Shown piece after piece: positions 965 to 61,760 of a stretch of DNA of 64,000 nt. Origin of the DNA: Chiloscyllium plagiosum (taxonomy: Eukaryota). Below the pieces are notes generated by a model. The model was not told the origin of the DNA. It saw only the letters and a program-made list of their open reading frames with translations, and ran no database searches. The DNA lies in NCBI RefSeq assembly GCF_004010195.1, contig NC_057719.1, positions 18,042,476 to 18,106,475 of the forward strand. Direction: 5' to 3'. Position 1 is the stretch's first letter. Each line of letters starts with the position of its first letter. A program made the position numbers and the translations under genes.

Positions 965-1072
965 GAGTCAATGAGTGTGTACTGGAAAAGCACAGCCAGT
1001 CAGTCAGGCAGCATCTGAGGAGCAGGACAGTCTACGATTCGGGCAGAAGCCCTTCATTAGGAATGAGGCTTG
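965..1072 (-). mobile_element. Short PLE-derived element, family A (pLTR fragment with degenerate hammerhead motif)
   Basis: Minus strand reads CCTCATTC-CTAATGA-A-GGGC-TTCT-GCCC-GAAT-CGTA..., followed by the family A body. Flanked by direct repeat GACCATGAGG(C/T)TGA at 951-964 and 1073-1086. Confidence 0.8.
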
Positions 1073-1561
1073 GACCATGAGGTTGAACAATGTGACACCA
1101 GCCTTACGATTGTATTCAGGCCTTTAGGTCAAATGGCTGGCTTTGGGGCCCACTCCAATCAAAAGCTGACTGCCTTCAGCTTAGACAAATAGAGAATTAA
1201 ATAAAATATATTTCTACAATCTAGAAAGAGATTGAATAGCTATCTCCTTTAAATTGAAGTTATTAGACTTGAGTAAGTACCTTCTTCCAAACAAAGTTAT
1301 TGAATATGTTATTGACTTCAAAGATTGGATGCATACCAACAACATTCAGGTCAATAAAGACTTGTAAATATCTTCCAGAAACCCACACCAACAGAACATA
1401 GACACACACTTTCCTTCAATTTAAAGTAGGGCATACTAAGTATATAACCTTACATTTCTCTTCAATTTAAGCCACCACAAACTGATAGACATTGGTCTCA
1501 GTCTAGGCTAGTGGGATTGCAATTATAACTCCCCAGGCCAGCAAAGTTTAGATATCATATA

Positions 1562-1775
1562 GAGGCAGAAAATACTGAGCAAACCTGTCAGAAGAGAGAG
1601 AGAAAAACAGAGTTAATGTTCCGGGGCTTTGACCCCTGGTCAGAATTGGTTTAAAGAGTCATCAATTTGAAACATGAAATCGCTCTCTCTCTCTGTCTTC
1701 CCACAGGTGCTGCCAGACTAGCTGGTTATTTCCATTATTTCCTGCTTTGATTTCAGATTTCCAGCATCTGCAGCA
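1562..1775. mobile_element. Old fold-back copy of PLE-like terminal repeat, family B
   Basis: Left part resembles 3885-4014 (...AGAAAAACAGAGTTAATGTT...GACCC...TCAGAA). Right part is the same family in reverse orientation, ending TTTCAGATTTCCAGCATCTGCAG. Confidence 0.55.
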
Positions 1776-2657
1776 ATTAATACTAAAAGCTAGATGTATT
1801 CCCTTGTCCTAACCTGGAGCAGCGAGATAAGTCCATCCCCTACTTTCCAATCCCCATGCTGGACTAATAGTATTGTGGCTCAAGGCTTTCTGCTATTGGA
1901 TCTAATAGGCAGGATTCATATAATTTAGACTTGAAGGGATAATGTACACAATATGAACAGCAAGAACAGGATGTAAAGATAATCCTCATAGACAGTCTGG
2001 ATAAACAGTCAAGTAGTGTTCCACATAACTCTGAAAACAAACCATCACAAACAAAATACACAAACATTCATGTCAAGCATGATTGAATATTTCCTACCTT
2101 GTTTGAAATACATACCTGAGAACTGCCTCCTGACCCCCCTCCCACTAGCCATCAGGATGGCGCGGATCACAGCTCAGATACATGTCTACTCTTGTCCCAC
2201 CAGACTGGATTATTATATGTTTACATCTCCAAACAGACCACCGGGGAATGGATGAAAACCTTTATCTGTGCCAAACCACCAGGAGAAATGCCACAAACCA
2301 CTAAATTACCATCATAAAAAAAACACAGGAGAGATGAAGTCATCTTGTCTGTTTGCAGACACTCCCAGGGCAGGCATGGACACTTGCTGAAGCATGAATA
2401 ATGTTCGCCCTCTTCAAACATACTCCAATGTTCTTTTCCAGTTGGAAGCACATGACTTGAAGCCCAATTGTGGATTTTCTCCTTGGATTTCTGTACAATA
2501 GTTCAAGTTTGGAATCGGCACCTTTCTTCAATAGATAGTCAAATCTTTATCGATTATATGACTTGTCCTGTCTCCAATTTGAGTAGCATGCTGGTTTAAA
2601 TGGGAAATTCAGGCTGAAAGTTCGAGCACCTTGTGTACCTCATTAGGTGAGCTTTGT

Positions 2658-3190
2658 AATTCTGGTCTCCTTCCTATCGGAAAGATGTTGTGAAACTTGA
2701 TGGGGTTCAGAAAAGATTTACAAGGATGTTGCCAGGGTTGGAGGATTTAGCTATAGGGAGAGGCTGAACAGGCTGGGGCTGTTTTCCCTGGAGCGTCGGA
2801 GGCTGAGGGAGACCTTATAGAGGTTTACAAATTATGAGGGGCATGGATAGGGTAAATAGACAAAGACTTTTCCCTGGGGTCAGGGAGTCCAGAACTAGAG
2901 GGCATAGGTTGAGGGTGAGAGTTGAAAGATAAAAAAGAGACCTACGGGGCAACTTTTTCACACAGAGGGTGGTACGTGTATAGAATGAGCTGCCAAAGGA
3001 AGTGGTGGAGGCTGGTACAATTACAACATTTAAGAAGCATTTGGATGGGTATATGAATGGGAAGGGTTTGGAGGGATATGTGCCAGGTGCTGGCAGGTGG
3101 GAACTAGATTGTTTTGGATATCTGGTCAGCATGGACGGGTTGGACCGAATGGTCTGTTGCTATGCTATACATCTCTATGACTCTATGACT
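2658..3190 (+). mobile_element. CR1 (HER1-type) LINE, 5'-truncated 3' end
   Basis: Encodes a decayed ORF2 C-terminus (VEAGTITTFKKHLDGYMN) and ends in a (CTCTATGA)n tail. Close copies at 14.3-14.8 kb and 42.1-42.6 kb. Confidence 0.95.
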
Positions 3191-3554: not shown

Positions 3555-4050
3555 TAATTCATTCACAAGATTTTTGATGTCACTGGCTAGACCAGTGTTT
3601 ATTGCCCTTCCCTAATTGTCCAGAGAACAGTTAAGGATCAGTTACCTTGCTGTGGGTCTGCAGTCACATGTAGGCCAGACCAGGTAAAGATGGCAGTTTC
3701 TCCCTAAACGGGGAAATCTTACACTTCCCTAAAGTGAGGTGGACTGATTTTTTTTCTTTCCTCCGACACTTTCATCGGCATCATTAGACTCTTAATTCCA
3801 GATTTTTAGCGATTTCAAGTTCCACAATCTGCTCAAGATTCAGGCTGAGGTCCCCAGCATATTTCCCGAGTCTCTAGATTAATATAAAACTAAGAACTGC
3901 AGGTGGAGGAAATCTGAAAAAAACCCATCAGAAATTGCTGGAGAAACTCAGCAGGCATCTATGGAGAGAAAGCAGAGTTAGCATAGCAGGTCCAGTGACC
4001 CTTCTTCAGAATGAATTAATAGTCGAGTGCCTCTCCTTTGCCCAGGAAAT
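3555..4050 (-). mobile_element. SINE with L2-like 3' tail, interrupted by a family B insertion
   Basis: Tail (CACTGGCTAGACCAGTGTTTATTGCCCTTCCCTAATTG) is the reverse of the tail at 9710-9770 and 41715-41780. Related copy at 18.9-19.2 kb. Confidence 0.7.
3885..4014 (-). mobile_element. Short PLE-like element, family B (hammerhead half-motif CTGAAGA plus hairpin)
   Basis: Minus strand CTGAAGA-A-GGGTC-ACTG-GACCT, with the GAAA box eroded. TSD ATTAATA at 3878-3884 and 4015-4021. Confidence 0.7.
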
Positions 4051-6122: not shown

Positions 6123-8805
6123 TGCCCAAAGTGGAATACCAACTCCATTTATCTGTTCCCAATTCACTTCTGAATTCGAGGCCTAGTGAAATTTAAGAAT
6201 GGCAGGAGAATAGTTATGACTTCTAACCATAATGGACACAAAATTGCAGAGCAACTGCTATGTTCCCAGGCTTATGCAAGTGCATAGATTTAGCCAAAAT
6301 ACTATGGTCTTTTTCAAATCCTACTGAAAACTGTGGGTGACAAATATATGCAGAGATGCAGCCCACCAGAAATGGGCAAGCAGATACACTGCTCTCTGGC
6401 AGGTTCGGTTTGGGGGGAAAGCTGCAGTGAGGTGATGAAGGAAGTGGAGGAGAGTGCCTGGAAGAGGCTGGTAACAGGCCATACTATTCGATGGGTGGGC
6501 ATGAGACACTCCTATTAATCCTGGTCCCAGCCAAATGAAACATCATCATTCATCGTCTGTGCTTGTTTCAGGTAGGAGCACTATGGTCCAGTCACAGCAG
6601 TTTTCATATATATAGTAGACTTGCGAGTCAATCACCCCATCCTTACCTCCCCAAAGAGCCCCATTTTCCAAGAATCTGAGTGTAATTTTGGTTGACTCCA
6701 TTTTATTTTTTAATTACGATATGCTGACACAAAAGCCACCTTTTATCCTTGCATGTTCAAGCAACGCAAAGAGATGTCCCTTATATCTGACTGGGAAGTA
6801 AAGAGCCCATTGTCCCTAGATTTTCATTTTTTTTCCTTTTTTCAGAAAAAAATCTTAAGGTGTGGTGATGTTGACAGACTCTTGTCTCCTTGGGGCAGAA
6901 ATGTTGTTTTCCAGAAAGCCCTTTAATCTTTCTTTTTAAAAGATTTAATTTGAGGTGTCGCATTTGAGATCTGACATAAAAATGTTGGCTTTACCCTTGT
7001 TATGAAAGTGATAGGTTATACTAATATCACAGAAAAGTAAGGCTGAGTAACTCACAGTAATGACCCATTCCAGACCAGCTTAACTCCTGCATCATGGTTT
7101 ACAGCTATTGCATCTATTTCATAACAGGCATACAGACATGAAAACCCCTTTTATTGCTTTGACTGTCACTATACAGCTATTAAATTGTGTACAGAAACAA
7201 TGGGCCAAACGGCCTCGTTAGCAGTTCATCAACCTATGAGTCTTTTGTTTGCGTTCTGCAGACCATTCAGAACTGTCCACTTTGTACATGGAAAACAATG
7301 ATTTTTGTCTATTTGTATTTTAATTACAAACTTTTCCTGTTAATATGCCATTCACTGCACATTATTAAGATGCGTGCAACGTGCCAAGACTTTTTCCTTA
7401 TCATAGCTAACCATGACCCCAGCAAACAGAAAATATTTTGATGTGACAGAGCTATTGAGTGCCATGAAAACGTGACTAGTGTAGCATTATCTTTAATAAT
7501 TTTGTTGACCAAACGGCTTTGGCATGAGTCAAACACATAGGAATGCCTTGCCCCCATTAAAACAAAATAGCTGCTTGGTGTGCAGATGGGCAAGATTTTG
7601 CTACAATGCTAAATCCCACAGCATTTCCAGGCAGTCTACTGCAGAGAGAGATACATTACCCACCAGTCTAGTAACCTCAAAATATTTTGCAACTCCTGGT
7701 GATCTAAAAGTCAGTGCATTTGTTTCTCCTGTGGGTGGAGGTGATTTGATTCTGGGACAGGATCTGTACCTAATTTCAGGCGGTTTTAGGATGCAATACA
7801 CAGCTAACTACAGGTAGTCTAATGCTTGCTGTGTCTAATTTCTCTTGTGCTCCAGATGATTTTGGCACTGTCTTGCATTATCACAGGAGGGATTTGAAGA
7901 CATTACTTCCTTTTCCATAAATCTGATCTTCCACAATCTCTGGAAGAACTGTCTGTGAATTCCCTTTATATCCTTCCTCTGACTGAGTGTTAGTGATCAA
8001 AAGATTGGACTGACCCTGCTTCTTGTATCTTGTCTGCTGCTGACTCATTACAGAATAGATGTGGCGGATAAATTGTATATCGGAAGAATGAGATGCATAA
8101 CAGGTACAAGTGATCTGAATCTTCACTGGAATTTAGGGTGTGACATGGGTCTCACATTAGACAGAGGCAGATTTAATTTTGAGTGTAGTTACGTAGAATG
8201 TGTAACACAGAAACTACATTTTCACTCACTGAGCCCAGATATTTCACGTTCTGTACAAAGCTCCTCCCAGACCACTTCACCAAGCCTGAACAGAGTCATT
8301 GTCCAGCTTTTAGAGTCTGATTTTAATTCAGCCTCAGTGTGGTGAACCTAACCTTAAAGCAGGGTTTTTGCTCCATCAATCTCAATGTATGGGAATAGTT
8401 CAGCTTCTTCCTTAATACTTCCTCATGCAGTCTCTGGCATCATTTCGCTGAAGTCGAGGAAAACATTCCTACTACTGTCCTCTGTACCATTGGATTGAAA
8501 CAATTTGTTTTGGTGTAGAAACATTGATAAGTCAGAAGCCAAAGAAGCCTACAGGAAGTAAAAAAAATCAAGAGTGATCCCTTTAGCATAATCATTCAAT
8601 GCACCACCTTGGGATGTTGCAAGGCGTTTCCCAGTGCCTGGACATTTGCCTGGATGGGTGCAGCTCCAATAACACTCAGGAAGCTGACGCTATCCAGGAC
8701 AAAGCAGTCGGCTTGATTGGCACCACATGAACAAACACTCACTCCCTCCAAATGCGCAGCGACCGTCTACTAAGTGTACTGCAGATATTCACCAAGTCTC
8801 CTTAG

Positions 8806-9459
8806 TTAAAAGTCACACACCAGACTATAGTCCAACAGATTATAATACACACTCTCTCATGTGCACTCACATGCACACACTCAAGCACACACTCACATGC
8901 CCACCCTCACATTCTCTCTCTCTCTCTCTTCCTCCCTAAATGTGCATGCACACACGTAAGTCTATGCGGTGAATTTGCATTTGCAGAATTGTATTTGCTC
9001 AAAAAGCAAACAATCTGCAGGCAGTCAATCCATGTAACATTTTATAAATTCCTACTTTGGAAACAGAACCAGTCTCACTCAAGATTGGGATTCAGAGAGA
9101 CTCCAACTCCACTCTTTCAATACATTGTCTGAGTTGAGATGTCACTTTTTTTTTATCAAACTTTAAATTATCTCAAGAATGTGACTTAAAAGAAGTTCTG
9201 GGATTTATATATTAATGAATCAAAACCTACAACCCATTCTAAAAGATGAAAGATTTAACAGCAATCTAGATTTGTTCAATATATCATTTTAATTACATGA
9301 CACTGTGATCTTTGCCTTATGATCCTGCACCATTAGTTACCTGATGAAGGAGCAGCGCTCTGAAAATTAGTACTTCCAAATAAACCAGTTGGACGATAAC
9401 CAGGTGTTATGTGATTTTTAAACTTTGTCCATCCCAATCCAACATCGACTCCTCCACAT
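8806..9459 (+). mobile_element. PLE-like non-autonomous element, family C, with short 5' inverted segment and hammerhead motif
   Basis: Perfect 13-bp TSD CAAGTCTCCTTAG (8793-8805, 9460-9472). The 3' 120 bp match 28747-28868. The first ~45 bp are an inverted copy of ~9380-9422. Internal CA/TC-rich tract. Confidence 0.85.
9338..9372 (+). ncRNA. Putative minimal type I hammerhead ribozyme (family C variant)
   Basis: UAC-CUGAUGA-A-GGAGC-agc-GCUCU-GAAA-A-UUA/GUA. Conserved core present; helix I UAC/GUA; 5-bp helix II; palindromic helix III AAUU. Confidence 0.65.
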
Positions 9460-9824
9460 CAAGTCTCCTTAGACAGCACCTTCTGAACACATGATTGTTG
9501 GCATTTAGAAAGACAAGGGCTGTCGACACCATCATGGGAGCACCACCATCTTCAAGCTTCCCTCCAACCCCACACCATCCTGACATGGAAATCTATCACT
9601 GACCTTTCAGTGTCATTAGTGCAAAGCCTTGAAACTCCTTCTTTAATGGCTTTTGGGTGCACCTACAGCACATGGACTGCAGCAGTTTACTGTTATTTTC
9701 TCAAGGGCAACTAGGGACTGATGGTAAATGCTGGCCAGACAGTGATGTCCAAGTCCTTTGAATGCATTTTAAAAATTGTTCCTTTTTAAGGATACATGCT
9801 TTTCTTGAAACCGTAATTGGGTCA

Positions 9825-13854: not shown

Positions 13855-14805
13855 TCTACTTGTTGTCATTTACATAAATGATTTGAATGCAGGCATTAGA
13901 GGTACAGTTAGTAAGTTTACAGATGACACCAAAATTGGACAGCGAAGAAAAATACCTCAGATTACAACAGGATCTTGATCAGATTGGTTAATGGGATGTG
14001 AAGTGGCAGATGGAGTTTAATTCAGATAAATGCGAGGTGCTGCATTTTGGGAAAACAAATCTTAGCAGGACTTGTACACTTAATGGTAAGGTCCTAGGGA
14101 GTGTTGCTGAAAAAAGAGATCTTGAAGTGCAGGGTCATAGCTTCTTGAAAGTGGAGTCACAGGTAGATAGGTTAGTGAAGAAGGCATTTAGTATGCTTTC
14201 CTTTATTGGCCAGAGTATTGAGTACAGGAGTTGGGAGGTCATGTTGTACAGAACATTGGAGTACAGGAGTTGGGAGGTCATGTTGTACAGAACATTGGTT
14301 AGGCCATTGTTGGAATATTGCATGTTGTGAAACTTGAAAGGGTTCAGAAAAGATTCACAAGGATGTTGCCAAGGTTGGATAATTTGAGCTATAGGGAGAG
14401 GCTGAACAGGCTAGGGCTATTTTCCCTGGAGCGGCGGAGGCTGAGGGGTGACCTTATAGAGGTTTACAAAATTATGAGGGGCTTGGGTTGGGGGAGTCCA
14501 GGACTAGAGGGCATAAGTTTAGAGTGAGAGAGGAAAGATATAAAAGAGACCTAAAGGGCAATGTTTTCACACAAAGGGTGATACGTGTATGGAATAAGCT
14601 GCCAGAGAAAGTGGTGGAGGCTGGTACAATTGCAACATTTAAGAGGCATTTGGATGGGTATATGAATAGGAAGGGTTTGGAGGGATATGGGCCAGGTGTT
14701 GGCAGGTGGGACTAAATTGGGTTGGGATATCTGGTCGGCATGGACGGGTTGGACCGAAAGGTCTGTTTCCATGCTGTACATCTCTTTGACTCTATGACTC
14801 TATGG
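13855..14805 (+). mobile_element. CR1 (HER1-type) LINE, RT C-terminal half to 3' tail
   Basis: SKFTDDTKIG, KWQMEFNSDKCEVLHFG, LERVQKRFTRMLP, and (CTCTATGA)n tail. Internal 39-bp tandem duplication at 14220-14297. Confidence 0.95.
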
Positions 14806-14892: not shown

Positions 14893-16160
14893 GCACAAAG
14901 ATAGACAGGAAAGTAATGTGTGAGGAAAGTATGAGGTGGCAAAAATCTTTTGAGAGATAGGCTAAGTGTGTGAAAACAGATCTGCCAAATGGAATACAAT
15001 GTGGGAAGATGAAATATTATCTATTTTGGCAGGAAGACTGAAAAAGAAACATATTAGCTAAATGGTGAGAGGTTGAGAGTTCTGAGATGAAGAGGGATTT
15101 GGGTGTTCCAGTACATGAATCACAAAAGGATAGTCTGCAGGTATGGCAAGTGATTCAGAAAGCTAATAGGATGCTATTATTAACTGTAAGAGGAATAAAA
15201 GACAACAAGAGGGAGGTCCTGTTCAGTTATAGAGAGCACTGGTGGGCACCACATCTCGGTACCATGCGCAATATTGGTCACCTTACTTATCAAAGGATGT
15301 AAATGCAATTCAGAGCAAGTTTTCCAGACTAATACCAGGTATGGGTGACTTGCATAACAAGGAGAGATTCTACAGACTCGGCTTGTATTTGCTGGCAGAA
15401 GAACGCCTCACCTTCCACCTTGGGACCCTTGAACCACCCAGCAACAACGTTGATTTCACCAGTTTCCTCATCTCCCCTCCCCCTATCTCATCCCAGATTC
15501 AAACCTCTAACTCGGCACCACCCTGTTGAACTGCCATCTTCCTTCCCATCTATCTGCTCCACCCTCTATTCCGACCTATCACCATCACCCCCACCTGCAT
15601 CCACCTATCGCCTTCCAAGCTACCTTTTATCCTAGCTCCACCCTTCTATTTATCTCACAGCCCACTTGGGCCATCCCCACATTTCTGATGAAGGGCTTAT
15701 GCCTGAAACATCAATTCTCCTACTCCCCTAATGCTGCCCAATGTGCTGTGCTTTTCCAGCACCGCACTTTTTTTGACTCTAATCTCCAGCATCTGCAGTC
15801 CTCACTTTCTCCTTGTATTTGCTCCTGTTTAAAAAGCAACAGGTTGCTTGACTGAAACATAATAAATGGGTCTTGACAGGATAGATGTAAAAATGCTGTT
15901 TTCTCACAGGAGAATCATGAAGTAGGGATTACTGTTAGAAAATAAAAGATCTCCCATTTAAAACAGAGTAAGGTGAATGTTTTTCTCAAAGAGGGCCATG
16001 AAACATTCATTCTCTCCACCTGAAAAAGCAGTGGAAGTGGACTCTTTAAATATATTTCTTGTTTAGCAAGGAAATGAATGGTTATCAGAAATAGACAGGA
16101 ATGGGGATTTGTGGTTGCAATCAGATAGCCATGACCTTATAAAATAATGGAGACAGGTGC
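14893..16160 (+). mobile_element. Older CR1 fragment interrupted by a Penelope-like insertion
   Basis: KRDLGVPVHESQK and QYWSPYLSKDVNAIQSKFSRLIPGM; the element resumes after 15812. Confidence 0.85.
15394..15811 (+). mobile_element. Penelope-like element 3' end (GIY-YIG C-terminus plus family A pLTR with hammerhead motif)
   Basis: Peptide EERLTFHLGTLEPPSNNVDFTSF resembles the C-terminus of vertebrate PLE GIY-YIG domains. A pyrimidine-rich spacer follows, then CTGATGA-A-GGGC-TTAT-GCCT-GAAA-CATC at 15685-15712. Perfect 12-bp TSD CTTGTATTTGCT (15382-15393, 15812-15823). Confidence 0.85.
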
Positions 16161-16287: not shown

Positions 16288-16835
16288 ATTTACAGGACAT
16301 TAGTTAGGCCACCTTTGGAATATTGCATGAATTCTGGTCTCCCTCCTATAGGAAGAGGGTGTTGTGAAATTTGAAATAATTCAGAGAAGATTTAGGAGAA
16401 TTATGCCAGGGTTGGAGGAGTTGAGCTAGAGGGAGAGGCTGAATAAGCTGGGGCTATTTTCCCTGGAGCATTGGGGGCAGAGGGGTGACATTATAAAATC
16501 ATGAAGGGCATGAATAGGATAAATTGACAAAGTCTTTACCCTGGATTCTAGAGGAGATAGGTTTAAGATGAGAGGGGAAAGAACTAAAAGGGACCTCAGG
16601 GGCAACATTTTCATGCAAAATGTGGTGCATGTATGGCAGGAGCTGCTAAAGGAAGTGGTGGAGGCTGGTACAATGAAACATTTAAAAGGCGTCTGGATAT
16701 GCATATGAATAGGAAGGGTTTAGACAGATATTGGCCAAATTCTGTCAAATGGAACTAGATTGTGTTAGGATATCTAATCGGCATAGTTGAACTGAAGGGT
16801 CCATTTCTGTGCTGAACATCTCTATGATTCTATGA
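16288..16835 (+). mobile_element. CR1 (HER1-type) 3' fragment
   Basis: YRTLVRPPLEYC... through to the CTCTATGATTCTATGA tail. Confidence 0.9.
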
Positions 16836-16838: not shown

Positions 16839-16972
16839 CCTCATTCCCGATGAAGGGCTTATGCCCGAAAGGTCGAATCTCCTGCTCCTTGGATGCTGGC
16901 TGACCTGCTGTGCTTTTCCAGCACTGCACTCTTGACTTTGATCTCCAGCATCTGCAGTCCTCACTTTCTTCC
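16839..16972 (+). mobile_element. Short PLE-derived element, family A
   Basis: ATTC-CCGATGA-A-GGGC-TTAT-GCCC-GAAA-G-GTC-GAAT (helix I ATTC/GAAT; core U4 mutated), then the family body ending GCAGTCCTCACTTTC. Confidence 0.85.
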
Positions 16973-21050: not shown

Positions 21051-22496
21051 GTTTTCAGCACAAACAGAAGCTAAAATGACATCCAATTTAAAGTAATTAA
21101 GTATCATTCGAGATAGAACAAAGAACAATACACCTTTCAGCCCTCCAAGCCTGCACTGACACATTTTGACTTACCATACTAAAATTCCACTTATGGGATC
21201 CATATCACCCTATTCCTTTCCTATTCATGTATTCTTCCAGGTGCTTCTTGAATGCTGCTATTGTGTCTCCTTCCCACCATCTCCTCTTGCAGCGCGTTCC
21301 AGGCATTCACCACCCTTGGCGTGAAAAACATGCCTCGCACATCTCTTTTAAATGTGCCCCCCCGAACCTTGAACCTGTGTCTCCTAGTTTCCCTGGGAAA
21401 AAGCCTCATACTTCCCACTCTATCCATGCCATTCACAATCTTATAAACTTCTACCAGGTCGCCCCTCAATGCCCTGCATTCCAGTGAAAAGAAGTCCAGT
21501 CTATCCAACCCTTCTTCATAGTAAAAATCCCCTATACTCGGCAACATCCTGGTGAATCTTTTCTGTGAATCCTCTCCAAAGCATCCATATCTTTCTAGTA
21601 GTGTGGTGACCAGAACTGTACACAATATTCCAAGTGTGGCCTAATTAAAGTTCTATAAAGCTGCAGCATAACTCAATGCCCCTTCAAATGAAGGCAAGAA
21701 TGCCATAGGCCTTTGTTACAACCTTATCTGTCTACACTACTAAGGGATCCTTGGACCAGCACACTCAGATCCCGCTGCATATCAAGGCTCCTAAGGGTTC
21801 TGCTATTCACTGTATAATTTCCATCTGTATTTGACCTTTCAAAATGCATCACCTCACATTTGTTTAGATTAAACTCCGTCTGCCATTTTTCTGCCCATGC
21901 CTCCAACTGATCTATACCCTGCTGTATCCTCTGACAATCCTCCTCATCAATCTTTGCATCATTTGCAAACTTACTAATTAGATCAACTACATTTTCCTCC
22001 AAATCACTTATGTAGACCATGAACAGCAGAGGTCCCAGCACTGATCCCTGTGGAACACCACTAGTCATAGCCCTCCATTCCAAAAAGCATCCTTCCACTA
22101 CTACCCATGACTAAGCCAGTTCTGTATCCATCTTGCCAGCTCACCCTTGATACCATGTGACTTCACCTTTTGTACCAGTCTGCCATGAGGGAACTTGTCA
22201 AAGATTTTGTTGAAGTCCAAGTAGACAACGTCAACCGTTTTTCCCTTATCAATCCTTTACATCACCTCAAACAAGTTAGTGAGGCATGACCTCCCTCCCA
22301 CAATTAAATTCTGCCTATCACTAGTCAGTCTACTTACTTCTAAATGTGTATAGATCTTATCCCTGAGAATCTTTTCCAATAATTTCCCTACCACTGATGT
22401 AACGCTCTCAGGCATGTCACTTCCTGGATTATCACTGTTACCCTTTTAAACAATGGGACAATATTATATATTCTCCAGTTCTCTCTGACCTCACTT

Positions 22497-40047: not shown

Positions 40048-41404
40048 GTTAGATGGGCTTCAGGTTGGTATGACAGGTCGGTGCAACATTGAGGGCCGAA
40101 GGGCCTGTACTGTGCTGTAATGTTCTATGTTCTATGTATAGTCTTGAGTGCTTCTTGATTATCTCCTGTAAATTTTGGGAAGTTTTTTTTCAAAAAGGCT
40201 GAGACAGATTTTGATGGAGACTTTTTGCATCATAGCCTAGAGACTGCTTAAACAATGAAACCGAGTCTGGGGGAGACTGAGATTGGAGTGATGATTTTAA
40301 TAGCTGAAATGAGGTGGAGGCATGTACAGTCCTACTCATACATAACGTAAGTTAAATCTTGAAATTGACCAGCTGCAGTAGGACCCTGAGGTTGTGGTCT
40401 GCTGAGCTACAATAGACTCTTAACTTGTTTCTTATCACTGGTGCAGAGGATTGAAAGATGTGCATCAGAAATCCCAAAACAGTCACTGCACTCTAATTTC
40501 TCGGGATGTTTGAACTTTCAATGACGATTTACTTGGTGTCAGGAACCCTCCCATAAATCTCTTCACTTAGGGTTGGAGACTTCGGTGGGTTTTGACTAAC
40601 TTACCCAAAGAGTTACCTGAGAAAAATTGTTAACTCATCCTCACTGCAAACATTAATATTTACTTCAGTCAATATTATCAGCCTTGAGTTAGGCAACATG
40701 AGCCAAACGCCCAAGAGAACAAATGACAATAGCTGCCATGAAGTTTATGACCACCTTCAGTAGACTCTTATTGTTTCAAAAGGCAAATAACATTCTAAAA
40801 TCCTCCATAAATATATCAGAGTCTTAGTCAGACCACATGGTTTGGAAGACAGGAATAAGCATCTCTTTTAATTAAAGCAAAAGGCTCTAATTAAAAGGCA
40901 GGTGTTTCACAGAACATGCAAAGTCCAGTTCTTGGTGGCTGAACTTAGAATGCAACTTCTCATCATATCCCAGGGCTAAAACATTTAGGAAAACAAGTCC
41001 TGCCATGACTTTCGAAATCAAAGCGCCACAAAAAACCAGCATTTAAAAAAAGCTTTGTTTGTGTAATTTTGATTGCTTTCATTTTTTTTAAATTGAATTT
41101 TGGTCATGTTCTCTCACAGTTTATGGTAAATATCCACAGTCCCCACCTATCAGAATTCACTGCCACTTTCAGTGAAGTTTGATCTGATAACATGAGTGAT
41201 AGCAGAAAGGCTTGTCTCAATAAAATATTCAGCCACATTAGGGATTGAGGCCTAAATTTCTTGTAAGATAGACAATTAATGCACCCAATAAGGTAAGTGG
41301 CACATTGTACCCATTATGTACCATAAGATTTCTACATGCCACATTGTATTGGGCTCCTCCATTGACATTCAGGATGTGCTTCATTTGTGTACCCCACAAC
41401 AGGA

Positions 41405-41780: not shown

Positions 41781-43818
41781 AGACCATGACATTATTTAAG
41801 TGAGGGTCAATCAATTGAGAAAGCTCTTTTATGAAAGCTGTCCACTCAGAGTCTGCCACATCATGCAAAAAACTTGATCAACAACATATTGCACGAGTAG
41901 ACAGCATGGTCCTCTATGACTTTAAAGGGCTCACCCAATACACAGAGGTTAGTTGCAAGTTTGTTGTTTTAGGCTAATGGTTAACCATTGAATGTGTTTG
42001 CTCAATATTTACCAAATGGTTTCCCAGTATGATTGCATTTTAATGTCTCAGATGTCACGTGATAGAGTCATAGAGTCACAGACAAGTACAGCACGGAAAC
42101 AGACTCTTCGGTCCAACTCATCCATGTCAACCAGATATCCTAACCTAATCAAATCCCATTTGTCAGCACTTTGCACATATCCCTCTAAACTCTTCTTATT
42201 CATATACCCATCTAGATGCCTTTTAAATCGTACAACTGTAGTAGTCTTCACCACGTCCTCTGGCAGCTCATCCCATATATGGACCATCCTCTGTGTGCAA
42301 GAGTTTCCTCTTAGGTCCCTTTTATATCTTTCCACTCTCACCCTAAATCTATGCCCTCTTGTTCGGGACTCCCCCACCCCAGGGAAAAGTCTTTGTCTAT
42401 TTATCCTATCCATGCCGCTCATGATTTTGTAAACCTCTATAAGGTCCACCCGCAGCCCCCGACGCTCCAAGAAAAACAGCCCCAGCCTATTCAACCTCTC
42501 CCTGTAGCTCAATTCCTCCAACCCTGACAACATCCTTGTAAATTCTTTCTGAACCCTTTTAAGTTTCACAACATCCTTCCGATAGGAAGGAGACCAGAAT
42601 TGCACGCTATTCCAAAAGTGGCCTAACCAATGTCCTGTACAGCCACAACTTGACCTCCTAATTCCTATACTCAATGCTCTGACCAATAAAGGAAAGCATA
42701 CCCAACGCCCTCTTCACTGTCCTGTCTACCTATGACTCTACTTTCAAGGAGCTATGAACCTGCATTCCAAGGTCCTTTGTTCAGCAAAACCCCCAAAGAC
42801 GTTACCACTAAGTGTAGAAGTCCTGATCTGATTTTGCTTTTCCAAAATGCAGCACCTCACATTTATCTAAATTAAACTCTATCTGCCACTTCTCAGCCCA
42901 TTGGCCCACCTGATCAAGGTCCCGTTGTGCTCTGAGGTAACCTTCTTTGCTAACCATTAGACCTCCAATTTTGGTGTCATCTGCAAATTTACTAACTATA
43001 CTTCTTATGTTCACATTCAAATCATTTATATAAATGACAAAAAGTAGAGGACCCAACACTGATCCTTTTGGCACTCCACTGGTCACGGGCCTCCAGTCTG
43101 AAAAGCTCTCCACCACCACCACCTCTTCTACCTTTGAGCCAGTTCTATATCCAAATGGCTAGTTGTCCCTGTATTCCATGAGACCTAACCTTGCTAACCA
43201 GTCTCCCATGGGGAACCTTGTTGAACGCCTTACTGAAGTCTATATAGATCACATCTACCATTCTGGCCTTGTCAATCCTCTTTATTACTTCCTCAAAAAA
43301 CTCAATCAAGTTTGTGAGACATGATTTCCAATGCATAAAGCCATGTTGACTACCCCTAATCAGTCCTTGCTTTTCCAAATACATGTAAATCCTCTCTCTT
43401 AGGATTCCCTCCAACAACTTGTCCACCACCGACATCAGGCTCACTGGTCTATAGTTCCCTGGTTCTTCCTTACCACTTTTTAAATAGTGGCACCACGGTA
43501 GCCAACCTGCAGTCTTCCAGCACCTCACCTGTGACTATCAATTAACAAATATCTCTGTAAGAGGTCTAGCAATCACTTCCCTAGCTTCCCACAGTGTTCT
43601 CAGGTACACCCAATCAGGTCCACTTTTATGCATTTCAATACATCCAGCATCTCCTCCTCTGTAATATGGACATTTTTCAAGAGTTCACCATCTATTTCCC
43701 TACATTCTATATCTTCCATGCCCTTTTTCACAGTAAATACTTATGCAAAATACTCATTTAGTATCTCCCCCATCTCCTGTGGCTCCACACAAAGGCCGCC
43801 TTGCTGATCTTTGAGGGG

Positions 43819-43910
43819 ATTCTGGATCAGTGGTGCTGGAAGAGCACAGCAATTCAGACAGCATCCGATGAGCAGGAAAATCGACGTTTCAGGCAAAAGC
43901 CCTTCATCAG
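43819..43910 (-). mobile_element. 92-bp family A element inserted in CR1 ORF2
   Basis: Perfect 13-bp TSD GATCTTTGAGGGG (43806-43818, 43911-43923). Explains the foreign peptide PDEGLLPETSIF...LIQN between two PLKD copies in ORF 43741-44196. Confidence 0.95.
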
Positions 43911-43916
43911 GATCTT
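43877..43916 (-). ncRNA. Putative minimal type I hammerhead ribozyme (family A, best-preserved copy)
   Basis: AAGAUC-CUGAUGA-A-GGGC-uuuu-GCCU-GAAA-C-GUC/GAUUUU. All core nucleotides and a GUC triplet present; 6-bp helix I with one G-U; palindromic helix III ACGU. Confidence 0.75.
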
Positions 43917-45645
43917 TGAGGGGCCCCATTCTCTCCCTAGTTACCCTTTTGCCCTTCATGTATTTATAAAAACTCTTTGGAATCTCCTTAACCCTATTTG
44001 CCAAAGCTGTCTCATGTCCTCTTTTTGCCCTTCTGATTTCCCTCTTAAGTATACTCCTACTGCATTTATACTCTTCTAAGGATTCTCTTGATCTCTCCTG
44101 TCTATACCTGACATATGCTTCCTTCTTTTTGTTAACCAAAACCTCAATTTCTCTAGTCATCCAGCATTCCCTACAACTACCAGACTTTCCTTTCACACTA
44201 ACAAGAATATACTGTCTCTAGACTCTTGTGATCTCTTTTCTGAAGGCTTCTCATTGTTCAGCCCTCCCTTTACCTGCGAACATCTGCCCCCAGTCAGCTT
44301 TTGAAAGTTCTTGCATAATACTGTCAAAATTAGCCTTCCTCCTATTTAGAACTTCAACTTTTAGATCTGGTTCATCCTTTTCCATCACTATTTTAAAACT
44401 AATATAACTATGGTCATTGGTCCCAAAGTGCTCCCCCACTGACACCTCAGTCACCTGCCCTGCCTTATTTCCCAAGAGTAGGTCAAGTTTTGCACCTTCT
44501 CTCGTAGGTACATCCACATACTGAATCAGAAAGTTTTCTTGTACACACAACACATTTCTCTCCGTCTAAACCCTTAACACTATGGCAGTCCCAGTCTATG
44601 TTTGGAAAGTTAAAATCCCCTACTAGAACCACCCTATTATTCTTACAGATAATTGAAATTTCCTTGCAAATTTGTTTCTCAATTTCCCGCTGACTATTAG
44701 AGGGTCTATAATACAATCCCAATCAGGTGATCATCCCTTTCTTATTTCTCAGTTCCACCCAAATAACTTCCCTGGATGTATTCCCAGGAATATCCTCCCT
44801 AAGTACAGCAGTAATGCTGTCTCTTATCAAAAACGCTACCTCTCTCCTGCCCACCCCACCCCACCCCACCCCACCCCTCCCTGTCTATCCTGGAGCATTA
44901 ATATCCTGAAACATTAAGCTGCCAGTTTTGGTCAAACCTGAGCCATGTTTCTGCAATTGCTATGATATTCCAGTCCCATATTCCTATCCATGCCCTGAGT
45001 TGCTTGAGATTCTACAGATCTGGTCAGCTTAGAATATTTCCCATGAGTCATTTATCTTATCCCCAATACACATTTAGCCCTAAAATGTAATCACCACACT
45101 TACCTACTTCCATCTTCACCCTAGCCGATCAGCCCTTCACTTTAGTTGAAATATAATCACAGTACCAAACCCAGAGGCAAAATTAAATTTATTGAAAAAG
45201 CAAAGTCCATCTTTTTCTAATATTTAATAGAAATGGTTATGAATTGCTCTTGTACAATCTCTTGGTGCCTATCGTCTGCACTTGTTTCCCATTCTACTAT
45301 TCCTATAAAGTGTTGCCCCAATGACTATAACTGATTATTTCCTCTAAGGGCAGTTCAGTGGCCTTACTGGGTGTCTGTATGCAGCTGAGGACCTTGAGAA
45401 CTGACCTTAAATTGTGGTATGGTAACACTGTTTAAGTAGGTACTGGTTCTGGTGGGCAAAGGGATGGTTGTCATCCCAAGGAAATATTCTCCAGGCGTTG
45501 CAATCAAAGTCACTTTGCCGGAACTGACCTTCACATTTGCAGAGATTCAGGATAAAGTGTCAACACTGACCCCAGAATGAAGCTAATTGAGCAATGGTGT
45601 GAACTGTTATGGAAGTTTCCAACTAATTAGGTGCTCTCTACATTT

Positions 45646-45838
45646 GCATCAAAAAGTGTGGTGCTGGAAAAGCACAGCTGGTCAGGCAGCATGCGAGGAG
45701 CACATTCCTGATGAAGAGCTTACATTCAAACCATCAACTCTCCTGCTTCTCAGATGCTGCCTGACCGGTTGTGTTTTTCCAGCACCACACTTTTTGACTC
45801 TGATCTCCAGCATCTGCAGTCCTCACTTTCCCCTACTG
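45646..45838. mobile_element. Family A element, fold-back form
   Basis: Reverse arm 45649-45711, then CACATTC-CTGATGA (helix II eroded) and the full body. TSD TCTACATTT (45637-45645, 45839-45847). Confidence 0.85.
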
Positions 45839-49166: not shown

Positions 49167-49719
49167 AACCTCAGCTGTTCTATCTGACATTGACATCCTG
49201 CTGCTGTCTTTCCCTCTCTACAAGACATCGTACCTCTCATTTCATTAATGTAATTAATTTCAAACAAAATTGATTGCGACAGATTAGAATGTAAGTTACT
49301 ACAGATTTAAAATAATGGAGGTTAAACTGTTATTTAATGGCAACTTCAATTAAACTTGCATCCCACAACATAAGTATTCCTTATAGTTTTATTAAATATT
49401 TGAACCTTGATCCTTTTGCTTGTGTAATGTTATTGGTACTTATTTTGAATGATGTGATATTGTTATCTAAATTAGCCCTAGACTTAGACAAACCTTCTTC
49501 TTTATAGAGCAACGTTTTAACTTGAACTTCGAGATGACAGATGCTAAGTTTAGTTTCTCAGGTGAGTGACGACAACAGTCTTACTTTTTTCCCCTCAGCT
49601 TACTGTATACTTTACTGGACAAGAGTCCTTAAGTGTGATATCATCTGCAAAAGCATAAATGTTTTTCTCCCACTGGTGCTAAGCGTTACATTACAGATGA
49701 TGAACAGAGGAAATGGTCA

Positions 49720-49901
49720 GAGCTGAAAAATGTGTTGCTGGAAAAGCGCAGTAGGTCAGGCAGCATCCAAGGAGCAGGAGAATCGACGTTTCGGGCATAA
49801 GCCCTTCCTGCTCCTTGGATGCTGCCTGACCTGCTGCACTTTTCCAACAACACATTTTTCAGCTCTGATCTCCAGAATCTGCAGTCCTCACTTTCTCCCA
49901 G
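49720..49901. mobile_element. Family A element, fold-back form
   Basis: Arms 49717-49780 and 49806-49868 are near-perfect reverse complements. The loop holds the hammerhead 3' half (minus: GGGC-TTAT-GCCC-GAAACGTC). Perfect 13-bp TSD GAGGAAATGGTCA (49707-49719, 49902-49914). Confidence 0.9.
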
Positions 49902-50430: not shown

Positions 50431-50439
50431 ATTCTGTTA

Positions 50440-53882: not shown

Positions 53883-54186
53883 AGTGAGCTTTGAGAAGAT
53901 TTGTAGCTTAAGTTGAGGTTCTGGATGTGGGTTTACTCGCTGAGCTGGAAGGTTCATTTCCAGACATTTCGTCTCCTTACTAGGTAACATTTTCAGTGGG
54001 CCTCAGACGAAGCACTGCTGAAAATTCCTGCTTTCTATTTGTATGTTTTTAAAATATATTTACATATAAATAGAAAGCAGGAATTTTCAGCAGTGCTTCG
54101 CCTGTGGCCCACTGAAGGTGTTACCTAGTAGGGTGACAAAACGTCTGGAAATGAACCTTCCAGCTCAGCAAGCAAACCTACATCCA
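53883..54186. mobile_element. Fold-back dimer of the family D Penelope pLTR (two degenerate hammerhead motifs)
   Basis: Arms 53922-54046 and 54062-54186 are reverse complements and match 57431-57590. Degenerate TSD TAGT(CG/TT)GGTGTT (53871-53882, 54187-54198). Confidence 0.9.
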
Positions 54187-57002: not shown

Positions 57003-57007
57003 GAAAC

Positions 57008-57430: not shown

Positions 57431-58340
57431 TAGTTTTGAGAAGATTTGTAGCTCAGGTTGAGGTTCCGGATGTAGGTTTTCTCGCTGAGCTGGAAGGTTC
57501 ATTTTCAGACGTTTCGTCACCATACTAGGTAACATGTTCAGTGAGCCTCCAGATGAAGCATTGTTGATGATTCATGCTTTCTATTTATATGTTTGGGTTT
57601 CTTTGGGTTGGTGATGTCATTTCCTATGGTGATGTCATTTCCTGTTCTTTTTCTCAAGGGGTAGTAAATTGGGTCCAAGTCAATATGTTTGTTGATAGAG
57701 TTCCGGTTGGAATGCCATGTTTCTAGGAACTCTCGTGTATGTCTCTGTTTGGTTTGTCCTAGGATGGTTGTGTTGTCCCAGTCGAAGTGGTGTCCTTCTG
57801 CATCTGTATGTAAGGATATTAGTGAGAGAGGGTCATGTTGTTTTGTGGCTAGTTGATGTTCATGTATTCTGGTGGCTAGTTTTCTACCTGTTTGTCCAAT
57901 GTTGTGTTGTTACAGTCCTTGCACGGTATTTTGTAAATGACATTAGTTTTGCTTGTTGTCTGTATTGGGTCTTTCAAGTTCATTATCTGCTATTTTAGTG
58001 TTTTGGTGGGTTTGTGGGCTACCAATGATGCCCAAGGGTCTGAGTAGTCTGGAAGTCATTTCCAATATGTCTTTGATGTAGGGGAGAGTGGTTAGGGTTT
58101 CTGGACATGTTTTGTCTGCTTGTTTGGGTTTGTTGCTGAGAAATCTGTGGACTGTGTTCATTGGGTACCCGTTCTTTTTGTATACACTATATAGGTGATT
58201 TTCTTCTGTTCTTCGTAGTTCCTCTGTGCTGCAGTGTGTGGTGGCTTGTTGGAATAATGTTCTAATGTGGCTCTGTTCGTGGATGTTGGTGGGGTGATTG
58301 CTTCTGTAGTTCAATATTTGGTCCATATGTATTGTTATCT
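57431..58340 (-). mobile_element. Penelope-like retroelement, 5'-truncated (RT thumb/linker, GIY-YIG endonuclease, family D pLTR)
   Basis: DQILNYRSNHP...KNGYP...LPYIKDI, then KTNVIYKIPCKDC / IGQTGRKLATRIHEH / REFLETWHS across frameshifts, then a terminal repeat with a hammerhead motif. Confidence 0.92.
57505..57544 (-). ncRNA. Hammerhead ribozyme motif in the family D pLTR (one core mutation)
   Basis: UCA-CUGAACA-U-GUUACC-uaguau-GGUGAC-GAAA-C-GUC/UGA. G8 is changed to C, so this copy is probably inactive. Confidence 0.6.
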
Positions 58341-60341
58341 ACAGGAAAGGTTAATCAAGGCCTCCTTGTTTCGTACTATATGTTCTGGTTTATAAAGGCT
58401 AGGATGTTGCGTGCTTTATTAACAGTTTTCTGAACGTGCCCTGCCACTTTCACACATTTCCACAGGTCTCCATTCCTGATCTTCTTATAGCATTGTATCC
58501 TTTATTTTCTGTTGCACTTCTTCATTATTCCCACCAAAATGAATCACTTCATGAAGCCCCATTGCACTCAGGTTAGTTGCCAGAATTGGATACTCTGAGA
58601 TATAATGTGAGGAAAAGACACATTTTATGTAATGTATGAAATGGCTTGAAGCAGTCATTGTGCTCATTAAGTTAAGAATGGTGCATGTGGAGATTTCCAT
58701 TGTTCAGTAGTGGCCTAACAGTGTGATTATATATCCATTCTGCCTAAATGAGCTTGGAAAGATGGTGGAATATTAAATCTTCAGAGCTTTCCTTGTGAAA
58801 TAATTTTCCTCCTATCAGAAAAAAAACAAGGCTTGGTAACCATTTTAAGTTTTCATGTTTCACTGGTCAACCGCAATTTTTCACTTTAGTGTAACTAGTA
58901 GCTTCACAAAAATACTGAACATTGTTGGAAAAGTAATACATTTGTAGCAGTCAACAGAGTATATTTTCAAATGAGCTAAACCAAACAAAAATACAGAACT
59001 CCTGAGAAACTGAAGCAAACCTTGTGGCAACCACAAACTAATTGCTAGTGAGGGAAATTGTAACTGTTACAAATTTTGAATATAAGAGGCAAATTTGCTT
59101 GTAACTGGTGCCAATTCCTTGTACTGTCTGCAAACTATTCATTACCGTTTTGGCAGAGGCTTTGCTGCTTCTGTTGTAATTCTGCCGCTCTCCGGAATGA
59201 GTGTCATCCCTTTGTCAGGGGGCCAAATAGCAGCTCCACCACTGAATACACTCTGTGTGCATTTTAACTGGACCCATTAACTGCCTATGCTTTCCTGAGA
59301 ATGAGCACTTTACTGAGCTCCCAGCTAAAATCACTGGCCTTTGAACAGCGAAGAGGGCAAGAGGAATCATCGGCATTGACTCGGTTTAGCTGTGGTAGGT
59401 TCTTGTCAAACGCACTTCTTCAGGACCGCCTCTGTGAAGTGCTATGCCCAGCAGGAGTGTGGAACGTAGTTGCTCTTTAATCGTGCTCCTGAGCTCATGT
59501 TCCTCACTTTTTAAAGGAGGGCTGAGTGCATCACATCAATGAGAAGAGCTAGCGCAGAACTTGGTTGCAGACTTTCTCCTGTGCCCTATGCTGAGCATGG
59601 TACCATATATTTTCTATATCTATATGTCATTTATTCTTTGTTTCTTGCTAGCATTAGCAGCTAATTGCTATCACAATTGTCTCCTTGCCACACAAATACG
59701 GAGACTATTCTTCTTGTTGAAATTATGAGTGTTCAATGTTAATGATATCAAACCATAAACACAGATGTTTTCAAGTTGCATTCCACAGTGCCATCAAAGG
59801 AAGCAATCTGTTGACATTCTCAGAGTCTAATGAACTACCAGCCCCAATATTATGACTAATGGCCAAAGCTATACATGTGCACATGCATGGGATTTATGAA
59901 TGTCGAAATTACAGTAGAAATCTGAACGTTATTTTCAAGATTCTGTGGCTGACATTAATGTCTTCTATTGCATAGGCTATTGAGAATAAATCTGTAACTC
60001 GCTGCCTGTTTCATACCAGCAACAAAGAGCTACCCAGGCAATCCCGATTTTAGTGCTTTGTGGAATTCTTTTTTTAAAGATTTGCTCAATCTCTGCCTGT
60101 GAACACCACTCACCTTTGGCTCTGATTGAACATCACCTCAAAATGAGGGCAAGGTGGTGAGAGCCATGGAAAGAAAGCTGAGAATCGGAGGATGGAGAAA
60201 GACTGGTCCTGTTCAAATTACCTTCCAACAATCAATTCTCAGAGAGTTAAAATGTTACTGCTCATCAGAAGGCCATTTGACTCATCGCATTTGTACCAAC
60301 TCTTTGGTAGAATCATTGGTTAATCCCACTCCCCTGCTCGC

Positions 60342-61712
60342 CTGTTGAGTTTCTGCCACACTCTCTGTTGTTCTTTCAAATTTCCAATGTCCGCAGTTAT
60401 TTGTGCTTACTGTACTGAAGTGTTGTTTAGGCTTCTGAAGCTGGGCCTGAACACTGAATTTCCTGACGTAGAATTAACGGTGTTACCAACATGGAGTGAA
60501 TGAGGACTGCAGATACTGGAGATCAGGGTCAAAAAGCACAGCAGGTCAGGCAGCATCTGAGGAGCAGGAGAGTCGACATTCTGGGCATAAGCCCTTCATC
60601 AAAATAGACAAGTTGGCAATACACGTCAACCAAAACAATTCCATGCCACATTCAAGGGTATTTGATACTTATTGCTATTTATTTAAAATCAAGGATTTAA
60701 ATCACAAGTTGATATAAAAAAGAGTATTTCCTCATGGCCCCTATGATTCTTTTCGCAATTACCTTGAGTTGAGGCTGGGCAGCAGCTAACTACAAGCACA
60801 ACTTGCTAGATTGCCAGTCCAATAAGATGTACCTTAGATGGCTTAAGGCAATGATTTCAAAATGCTATTGTATGGATCACACTGTCCCATCTGAAAATCT
60901 AGATACATTCCAAGCAACCACCCTGCCCTGGCATGTTTGCATGATGAAAAGCATAAAAACTTGGCTGACCAGAGAGAAATGGTGCATTTGGCAGAAACAA
61001 TTTGATAATAGTACATGAAGTGACAGAAATAAAAGCTAGCAAGTCACAGTCTGAAAATGGAAGGTAGAATTCTAACGGTATTGTACTAGTGCTGTGTGAT
61101 ATTCCTGGCCCAGTACTGACACACTGTAAACCCGTTGAGGATCCTTTTGGGATCTGCTCTGCAAAGCTAGTTTGAAAACCACAAAATCAATGAACTTAAA
61201 AAATGACGACTAGCTTTATTTTGTGTTTAAACCAAAAGGCTAATGATCCAGGGAAAGGATCATTTAATAGATTTTTTTTAATATAAGCTTGGAAGGACTT
61301 GCCTGCATTAACTAAATATCACACACATGTTATATTCAGCTCCAAACAACAGGCTATATAAAAAAAAGGATAGGCAGCAAACACCCCTAAATGTGGCATG
61401 GATTGTTTTAGTTGATTTGTATTGCCAACTTGTCTATGTTGGTGAAGAGCTTATGCCAAAATGTCGAATCTCCTGCTCCTCAGATGCTTCCTGACCTGCT
61501 GTGTTCTTCCGGTGCCACACCTTTTGACCCTGATCTCCAGTATCTGCAGTCCTCATTCCCTCCATGTTGGTAACACCGTTAGTTCTACATCAGGAAATTC
61601 AATGTTCAGGCCCACCTTCAGAAGTCTAACCAACGCTTCAGTACAGTAAGGACAAATAACTGTGGACATTGGAAATCTGAAAGAACAACAGAGTGTGGCA
61701 GAAACTCAACAG
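60342..61712. repeat. ~330-bp inverted duplication (arms 60342-60672 and 61370-61712, ~700-bp spacer)
   Basis: Unique sequence and an embedded family A element align in reverse complement, e.g. TAGACAAGTTGGCAATACA / TGTATTGCCAACTTGTCTA and AACGGTGTTACCAACATGGAG / CTCCATGTTGGTAACACCGTT. Confidence 0.92.
61444..61563 (+). mobile_element. Family A element (mirrored at 60493-60600 on the minus strand)
   Basis: GAAGAGCTTATGCCAAAATGTCGAATC... body; TSD ATGTTGGT (61436-61443, 61564-61571). Confidence 0.85.
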
Positions 61713-61760
61713 AAACTGGCAGTGTGTGTAGACAGAGAAACAGAGTTAATGTTTTGAGTC
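61665..61760 (-). mobile_element. Family B PLE-like terminal fragment
   Basis: GGAAATCTGAAAG...GAAACTCAACAG...AGAGAAACAGAGTTAATGTTTTGAGTC matches 3908-3990. A more eroded copy lies at ~52140-52245. Confidence 0.65.

Follow-up and report, generated by a model that had tools for sequence, protein, structure and literature searches.

A 64,000-nt stretch of the genome of the shark Chiloscyllium plagiosum (NC_057719.1, positions 18,042,476 to 18,106,475, from an assembly of 3.56 Gb), which we call the window, carries 16 insertions of short repeats with a hammerhead ribozyme motif, belonging to four families named A to D. These repeats are best read as end modules of protein-coding Penelope-like elements (PLEs), with the short copies being their by-products. 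More precisely, they are very probably the 5'-truncated and often inverted terminal modules of four endonuclease-bearing PLE lineages, each module being a pseudo-long terminal repeat (pseudo-LTR) composed of a promoter, a minimal hammerhead, and the region in which reverse transcriptase (RT) starts; this reading takes in the run-off copying discussed below.

With family reference sequences as queries, BLAST placed 24 arms in the window; for 1562, the weak minus arm was taken from separate comparisons. The arms combine into nine insertions of family A, three of B, two of C, and two of D, which together cover about 4.3 kb or 6.8% of the window. This reproduces the count of about 16 insertions made in a first-pass annotation of the same DNA, closely also in position. 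Its description of a dense population of PLE-type minimal hammerheads is borne out as well, as the motifs are of type I and about 104,000 exact motifs are found genome-wide. The size range of 90 to 650 bp that it proposed was too narrow, since the D copy at 57431 extends over about 910 bp and includes coding sequence.

The family-level motifs A to D, as written in that annotation, exist as intact exact forms in the genome. Patterns requiring an intact core, helix II, and NUH match 86,254 sites for A, 105 for B (CUGAAGA-A-GGGUC-ACUG-GACCC-GAAA-CG-UU), 16,739 for C, and 924 for D, and the reversed control of each pattern matches 0. The core positions are invariant between the families, and the helices differ. 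The features of the minimal type I hammerhead are found throughout, namely, CUGANGA, GAAA, NUH, an extra base after A9, the G10.1-C11.1 pair, and a palindromic 15.2-16.2 segment, with most single copies in the window no longer complying. In 10 examples, helix I has 2 to 4 bp and helix II 4 to 6 bp. Helix III is an ACGU or AGCU palindrome with two bases between A15.1 and U16.1 and therefore has no closure within a single strand. Helix I covaries in family D, with CCA/UGG at 16 of 32 sites, UCA/UGA at 5, the wobble form UCA/UGG at 3, and mismatched or other combinations at 8. Judged by sequence, the motifs belong to the minimal type I hammerheads already known from PLEs. In transcripts of head-to-head copies, long hairpins should form and block the hammerhead fold.

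Most of the window copies are decayed. CUGANGA, GAAA, and NUH are retained together at 6 of 19 motif sites (15685, 26961, 32014, 43910, 9341, and 28733), and a strict minimal-hammerhead descriptor is satisfied in full at 2 window sites and at 0 in 200 dinucleotide-preserving shuffles. The Rfam scan of the window gave no hammerhead model match at E values up to 5; its 19 weak matches, all below gathering scores, are mostly microRNA (miRNA) models on palindromes. A U6 match at 16341-16392 (E value, 0.28) was dropped, as it sits within sequence of a long interspersed nuclear element (LINE). The inverted pairs at 54012-54096, 49748-49837, and 28709-28774 resemble miRNA hairpins at subthreshold scores; they could be annotated wrongly or supply substrate to double-stranded RNA pathways. 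Annotators are therefore warned that hairpins from PLE ends mimic miRNA precursors.

The evidence for a PLE origin comes from the longer copies. In every family, longer copies with a common 3' end and staggered 5' ends reach coding sequence for a GIY-YIG endonuclease and RT, which speaks against the earlier view of non-autonomous families similar to short interspersed nuclear elements (SINEs). The domain names RT and GIY-YIG follow sequence motifs and the linker rule of Craig 2021 (PMC8557442). For family A, 30 loci share fixed 3' ends and have 5' ends staggered up to 1.2 kb upstream; they were found with the 15390-15700 copy, a query that favours copies of this length or more. Translation of the five longest gives, with interruptions, an RT thumb, a Cys-rich linker, and an endonuclease with C..C.LLYIGET...EERLIFRLG. 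An upstream untranslated region (UTR) shared by 2 of 14 intact family B copies has 40 scored matches, and three of the four B loci examined (L141, L143, and L144) match the A endonuclease by tblastn, with a best E value of 5e-17. For family C, one of five fetched loci (L071) reaches the end of the endonuclease, and the near-complete locus L105 shows a hammerhead, an RT frame, and a second hammerhead in direct order, with 2,517 bp between the hammerheads and the endonuclease part deleted. A pseudo-LTR on both sides of the frame was found in this C locus alone and not for A, B, or D. The locus L104, with two B motifs 3.3 kb apart, was rejected as a full element because it is a segmental tandem duplication of host DNA. 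Family D has coding sequence at 57538-58338 in the window, upstream of the motif, and its terminal peptide gave 82,846 first-look candidate sites genome-wide, of which 150 were scored. The PDB search with the L105 frame returned one match, at an E value of 0.7.

The Cys-rich linker reads PCHRKRCKPC in A and, in degenerate form, TCNRRRFNTC in B; it is only partial in C. Family D has no Cys linker, and its reading frame begins inside the hammerhead. By sequence motifs together with the linker rule of Craig 2021, families A, B, and C would be Neptune-type and family D Poseidon-type. In D, the core TGA stops the upstream frame and an overlapping AUG starts the next, both within CUGAAGAUG (window 57538-57543 on the minus strand and D loci). 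The frame from this AUG is open through the tail for at least 39 codons in 7 of 20 sampled copies, and the other copies mostly break, with a stop after codon 16 or at the copy end. In the C locus L105, the AUG lies 121 nt past C3, exactly at the long 3' end, so that short C copies equal the leader of the messenger RNA (mRNA).

The four families were first described as unrelated. This does not hold for A and B, whose tails and hammerheads align with 79% identity over 72 nt (E value, 1.5e-13), a score that is reached by 0 of 500 shuffles; the other five pairs score like shuffles, in agreement with the description. A further D-like lineage, with helix II CUGAGGAUGUCACC-N6-GGGGAC, was observed in L163, L104:3640-3851, and L103, which brings the number of families in this genome above four. 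Among the young A subfamilies, loop II varies (UUAU, UUUU, CUGU, and UCAU), as does the entire upstream UTR, and TTATCT is conserved about 33 to 36 nt before the point at which 5' ends pile up (see below). One subfamily with a UUUU loop has a different tail end.

The insertion footprint is the second line of evidence. As claimed in the first-pass annotation, the copies are inserted with target site duplications (TSDs): TSDs of 9 to 16 bp flank 10 of the 16 window insertions (the one at 43819 by eye), and TSDs of at least 10 bp were found for 22 of 60 short insertions from the window and the loci versus 8 of 180 controls with swapped flanks. The 3' ends are bimodal relative to C3, at about +88/+122 in A, +83/+118 in C, and +74/+107 in D, with a broader distribution in B; the longer end coincides with the end of the reference sequence used. 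A single arm has this longer end, the tail, in 33 of 36 head-to-head pairs, both arms have it in 2, and neither arm in 1. The inverted junctions vary from copy to copy, and the palindromes are thus not inherited units. For endonuclease-bearing (EN+) PLEs, an inverted copy, an optional tail of 30 to 40 bp, and a TSD have been described (Arkhipova 2013, PMC3846280; Craig 2021, PMC8557442; here and below, statements on published systems refer to the accessible portions of the cited papers). In its sequence features, that is, TSDs, head-to-head inversion, and the one-arm tail, the footprint here matches this published PLE pattern.

The 5' ends were sampled from copies chosen for an intact core alone, taking every fifth listed match for A, C, and D (mostly from the first contigs) and 14 spread matches for B. 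Many of these copies start 0 to 19 nt upstream of the core (10/20 in A, 12/14 in B, 10/20 in C, and 7/20 in D). In A, 10 of 20 begin within about 10 nt of C3, mostly at 0 to -4, and the other 10 extend at least 36 nt into the subfamily-specific UTR. In B, 12 of 14 begin within 13 nt of C3, and in C, 10 of 20 begin within 16 nt and 10 of 20 at 79 nt or more. With a truncation rate that is held constant and estimated from the long copies, the P values are about 3e-9 for A and about 3e-8 for C. A TATA-like box lies about 32 (B), 39 (C), and 48 (D) nt upstream of C3, which is about 30 nt before the pile-up, and an initiator-like sequence whose A falls at -4 is present in A and B; the short copies of all four families are without the upstream TATA-like sequence. 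A prediction for D of -18 ± 6, fixed before sampling, agrees with 4 of 20 starts at -16 to -19, where about 2 of 20 are expected by chance, which makes this a weak test. A second cluster of D starts, between about -51 and -67, sits immediately before the TATA-like box (window 53883-54186, L155, L157, L158, and L011). A pattern with the old A UTR before the core (464 of 86,254) was set aside as uninformative, because the young subfamilies have their own UTRs.

The insertion catalogue was also inspected for 5' ends accumulating at the cleavage site (+28), and no such pile-up was seen. Since the pile-up is absent there and the copies keep both ribozyme halves, the templates were uncut. The position of the pile-up at the hammerhead edge, and not at the cleavage site, suggests run-off copies of an uncleaved mRNA leader.

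A mechanism with four steps may account for these patterns. A partial-tandem master would be transcribed from the promoter of its upstream pseudo-LTR, so that the mRNA carries the module at its 5' end and again after the reading frame. The RT-endonuclease would then nick both target strands, as in the Anolis element PAc (PMC11167929), to which the footprint here corresponds, and reverse transcription would begin internally at either of two sites about 35 nt apart; this would result in 3' ends fixed at two positions, a TSD, and head-to-head pairs in which one arm is tailed. Priming on the 3' module would yield long copies with random 5' ends, and priming on the 5' module would run off the mRNA start after 90 to 130 nt, leaving mini-copies that start just upstream of the hammerhead. 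Indirect support exists for the last step, in which the template would still be uncut during copying and both ribozyme halves would be kept; the hammerhead would need a partner copy or protein help for helix III, and the genomic mini-copies would be decaying passengers. We consider it an evenly balanced question whether the mini-copies are indeed such run-off ("strong-stop-like") complementary DNAs, primed internally on the 5' module of uncut mRNA and extended as far as its cap site. In that case, the transcription start of each lineage would be recorded in tens of thousands of junctions, and the mRNA would have the hammerhead as its first structure, positioned so as to decap and silence the transcript or to keep translation and copying apart.

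Several results weigh against this interpretation or parts of it. Starts in D are spread, with 3 of 20 at -2 to -7, 3 of 20 at -53 to -67, and 10 of 20 long, and family A has, besides the initiator-like TCATTCC, only a poor TATA match (TATTTA at -38). The Penelope promoter of Drosophila virilis is TATA-less, with a start 46 nt before a 75-nt intron that ends at helix I; it thus precedes the hammerhead by more than 100 nt, and starting at the hammerhead edge is not a general rule. Three short A copies (L085, L086, and L089) form a subfamily without any long copy among the 20 sampled, and some of the junctions are explicable by fold-back at a hairpin. A full-length master in intact form was not recovered. 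Pfam matched none of five window peptides from D, A, and C, its one result being a subthreshold RVT_1 match in L105 (1 of 3). The clade labels are provisional assignments by sequence motifs and the linker rule. The RNA reads from run X20 of a relative show no site where many molecules start or end. Lastly, the active dimer fold was the lowest-energy cofold in 0 of 10 examples, calculated with an energy model that ignores the catalytic core; the folding energies neither demonstrate nor rule out self-cleavage as a dimer or with a protein.

The X20 data comprise 2,047 reads, drawn from about 2% of a run on a poly(A) single-cell library. Among the sites listed, the single upstream site with loose ends is at -4 (99 reads), and depth rises about sevenfold across the hammerhead. 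The reads lie on both strands, and 93% continue into unlike sequence. What these reads show is that host transcripts contain short copies beginning at the same point; they are no evidence of a transcription start or of cleavage.

The same PLE origin could be combined with another cause of the pile-up, namely, stalling, template switching, or fold-back of RT at the hammerhead, or a splice acceptor there, which we judge somewhat unlikely. Many short copies have an inverted arm joined at exactly this point, including all three of the D copies stopping at -2 to -7, and self-priming has been proposed for the palindromes at PLE junctions (Arkhipova 2013, PMC3846280). However, the pile-up moves with the TATA-like box between families (about -4, -4, -8, and -18), and short copies without an inverted arm start at the same place (L086, L089, L096, L101, and window 32011 and 43819). 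A splice acceptor would recall the D. virilis intron ending at helix I, and family B has a pyrimidine run and CAG just upstream, whereas A has no AG there, and spliced templates should share an upstream exon, of which the short copies share none.

A separate question is whether the hammerhead shape is kept for another purpose, such as protein binding, promoter function, or translation start, without a useful rate of cleavage. Published minimal PLE hammerheads cut poorly alone (Cervera and De la Pena 2014, PMC4209133), and PAc RNA cuts only with its protein, its insertion in vitro being independent of cleavage (PMC11167929). The copies here were made from uncut templates, the D core doubles as a stop and start codon, and no ends of RNA reads are heaped at the cut site, although a poly(A) single-cell library may not show them. 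Nevertheless, the catalytic positions, NUH, and the self-complementary helix III (ACGU/AGCU) are kept across lineages with unrelated flanks, and the rescue of PAc C3G by G8C is real hammerhead chemistry in a homologous setting (PMC11167929). We judge such another purpose, without useful cleavage, to be unlikely.

The consensus sequences have no tRNA-type head and no poly(A) or simple-repeat tail, and there is no tRNA, 5S, or 7SL match in Rfam; head-to-tail arrays are absent from the window and none was seen in 164 loci, with no genome scan having been aimed at arrays. Independent non-autonomous mini-elements, SINE-like or retrozyme-like, with their own short masters mobilised in trans, as envisaged in the first-pass annotation, are very unlikely: uniform length, TSDs, a very high copy number, a share of short copies of half or more among intact copies, the published existence of non-autonomous PLE derivatives, and the one A subfamily with three of three copies short would suit them, but in most subfamilies (A2, A3, B, C, and D) a long copy has the same subfamily-specific hammerhead and tail as a short one, short copies miss the upstream TATA-like box, the palindromes differ in their junctions, the window has no tandem arrays of units as retrozymes do, and the RNA reads on both strands running into unlike sequence are as expected for passengers in host transcripts.

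The interpretation as PLE end modules agrees with what is known of related systems. Cervera and De la Pena 2014 (PMC4209133) described minimal hammerheads in the pseudo-LTRs of metazoan PLEs, with weak cleavage as dimers. These share with the shark motifs the type I layout, the absence of loop 3, the palindromic 15.2-16.2 segment, the extra base between 9 and 10.1, and G10.1-C11.1. Likewise, one genome has several consensus families, the motifs are mostly single and attributed to truncated PLEs, and opposite-strand pairs lie 100 to 700 bp apart. The differences are the helix II of only 4 to 6 bp and the number of motifs, about 104,000 exact matches here versus about 4,000 in the coelacanth and 9,000 in Xenopus by the descriptor used there. 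Sharks are not named in the accessible portions of that paper or in the supplement file searched.

The Anolis Poseidon element PAc (Frangieh et al. 2024, PMC11167929), in which both strands are extended from two internal starts, is most similar to family D. Both have an AUG at the start of stem II, with the cut site 28 nt later here and 26 nt later in PAc. The two 3' ends of D lie about 70 and 102 nt into the frame, compared with RT starts at 111 to 118 in PAc; the tail lies between the two starts, and uncut RNA is the template. In A, B, and C, the AUG is located elsewhere (directly behind the tail in the case of C). The accessible portions of the PAc paper do not describe 5' ends piling up at the start of the mRNA. 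The EN+ PLEs of the Neptune and Penelope/Poseidon types (PMC3846280 and PMC8557442) show the same strong 5' truncation, head-to-head inverted copy, and one-end tail of 30 to 40 bp, a TATA box and an initiator-like sequence in the pseudo-LTR, and, in Neptune, the Cys-rich linker. Their published TSDs are 8 to 10 bp, compared with 9 to 16 bp here, where, in addition, a large fraction of insertions consists of the last 90 to 130 bp only. The non-LTR retrozymes (PMC7229834; Li et al. 2026, bioRxiv 10.64898/2026.07.22.740005), which include hammerhead-bearing PLE derivatives in one cartilaginous fish (Li et al. 2026), are also short, noncoding, PLE-related units with type I hammerheads. They are defined as tandem repeats, with canonical hammerheads and circular RNAs in PMC7229834, whereas the shark copies are scattered as monomers or in inverted pairs, and their hammerheads are minimal.

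The individual window insertions illustrate this range of forms. Family A includes a long copy (15392-15811, plus strand) with the final codons of the GIY-YIG domain (EERLTFHLGTLEP...), the 3' UTR, the hammerhead at 15685, the tail, and a 12-bp TSD. Its short copies are found at 964-1068 (minus; starting about 8 nt upstream of C3 at 1060, with a decayed core of CUAAUGA and GAAU, no tail, and a 14-bp TSD), at 16839-16969 (plus; with a tail and the core CCGAUGA, TSD not found), at 32011-32137 (plus; with a tail, the intact core at 32014, and a 9-bp TSD), and at 43819-43910 (minus), within a CR1-type LINE. The last begins at C3, contains the best-preserved hammerhead of the window, and has a 13-bp TSD (43806-43818 and 43911-43923). 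Head-to-head pairs of A are located at 26851-27041 (one arm tailed, core at 26961, 16-bp TSD), 45649-45830 (broken helix II, 12-bp TSD), and 49717-49897 (CUGANGA removed by the junction, 13-bp TSD).

Family B has an eroded head-to-head pair at 1562-1773 (minus arm about 1562-1640, plus arm 1672-1773, TSD not found) and a short copy at 3886-4015 (minus), which begins about 6 nt upstream of C3 (4009), has lost the GAAA box, and has a weak 7-bp TSD. The C copy at 8804-9460 (plus) consists of a short inverted arm (8804-8841), a CA-rich 3' UTR, the hammerhead at 9341 with an intact core and an AAUU palindrome, and the tail, flanked by a 16-bp TSD, and the second C insertion is a head-to-head pair at 28648-28870 (cores at 28733 on the minus and 28750 on the plus strand, one arm tailed, 14-bp TSD). 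In the D pair at 53883-54186, both arms extend to about 52 nt upstream of C3, one arm is tailed, the cores are decayed, and there is no clear TSD. The long D copy at 57433-58340 (minus) contains a broken C-terminal RT region and GIY-YIG-type coding sequence, the TGA in the hammerhead core (C3 at 57541, G8 mutated), and the tail, with the TSD not found. One A and one B copy (60493/61444 and 60341/61665) were doubled through a local inverted duplication, in which 60342-60672 and 61370-61712 are 86% identical over 347 columns, the flanks of both copies included. The copy at 60342-60672 (minus) holds one A copy (60501-60601) and part of one B copy (60341-60404), and the other, at 61370-61760 (plus), holds family A at 61440-61555 (plus, 11-bp TSD) and an eroded family B at 61652-61760 (minus).

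Family A copies have also landed in other repeats (L069:1218-1345, L103, L096, and window 43819), among which are further PLE copies and a C element, hit in its CA-rich UTR. Pieces of CR1-type LINEs are abundant in the window. A near-complete but broken one, with an ORF1-like part and endonuclease-RT pieces, lies at about 35800-40050; its ORF1-like part has what we take to be Cys motifs and a GDS esterase-like motif. More LINE pieces are found at 2655-3190, 13900-14800, 21200-24050, and 42000-44600, and an assembly gap of 945 N at 22916-23860 is inside a LINE. Another repeat, at 19288, 31814, 34354, 53536, 55168, and 63362, is probably a tRNA-derived SINE with a LINE-like tail (repeat families D13, D15, D16, and D19).

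We found no description of these shark families, or of a pile-up at the mRNA start, in the accessible literature; Repbase, Dfam, subscription papers, and bioRxiv supplements were outside the search and may hold them. The term "strong-stop" was not found in the PLE literature searched. Already published are hammerheads in PLE ends, their scatter as single motifs, and PLE abundance in a shark, a PLE expansion having been reported for the whale shark. Dimeric PLE hammerheads were reportedly described by Lunse et al. The repeats thus add a very abundant case to a kind of element already known, and they do not constitute a new SINE-like class. As a discovery this is modest, and its value lies in the scale, as about 104,000 exact motifs in one genome constitute a large natural record of PLE insertion, a process that is still only partly understood. 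The young A and C subfamilies provide clean substrates for work on hammerhead function. If the pile-up marks the mRNA start, it would explain the shortness of PLE debris, and promoter, ribozyme, and RT start would be joined in a single module of 130 nt.

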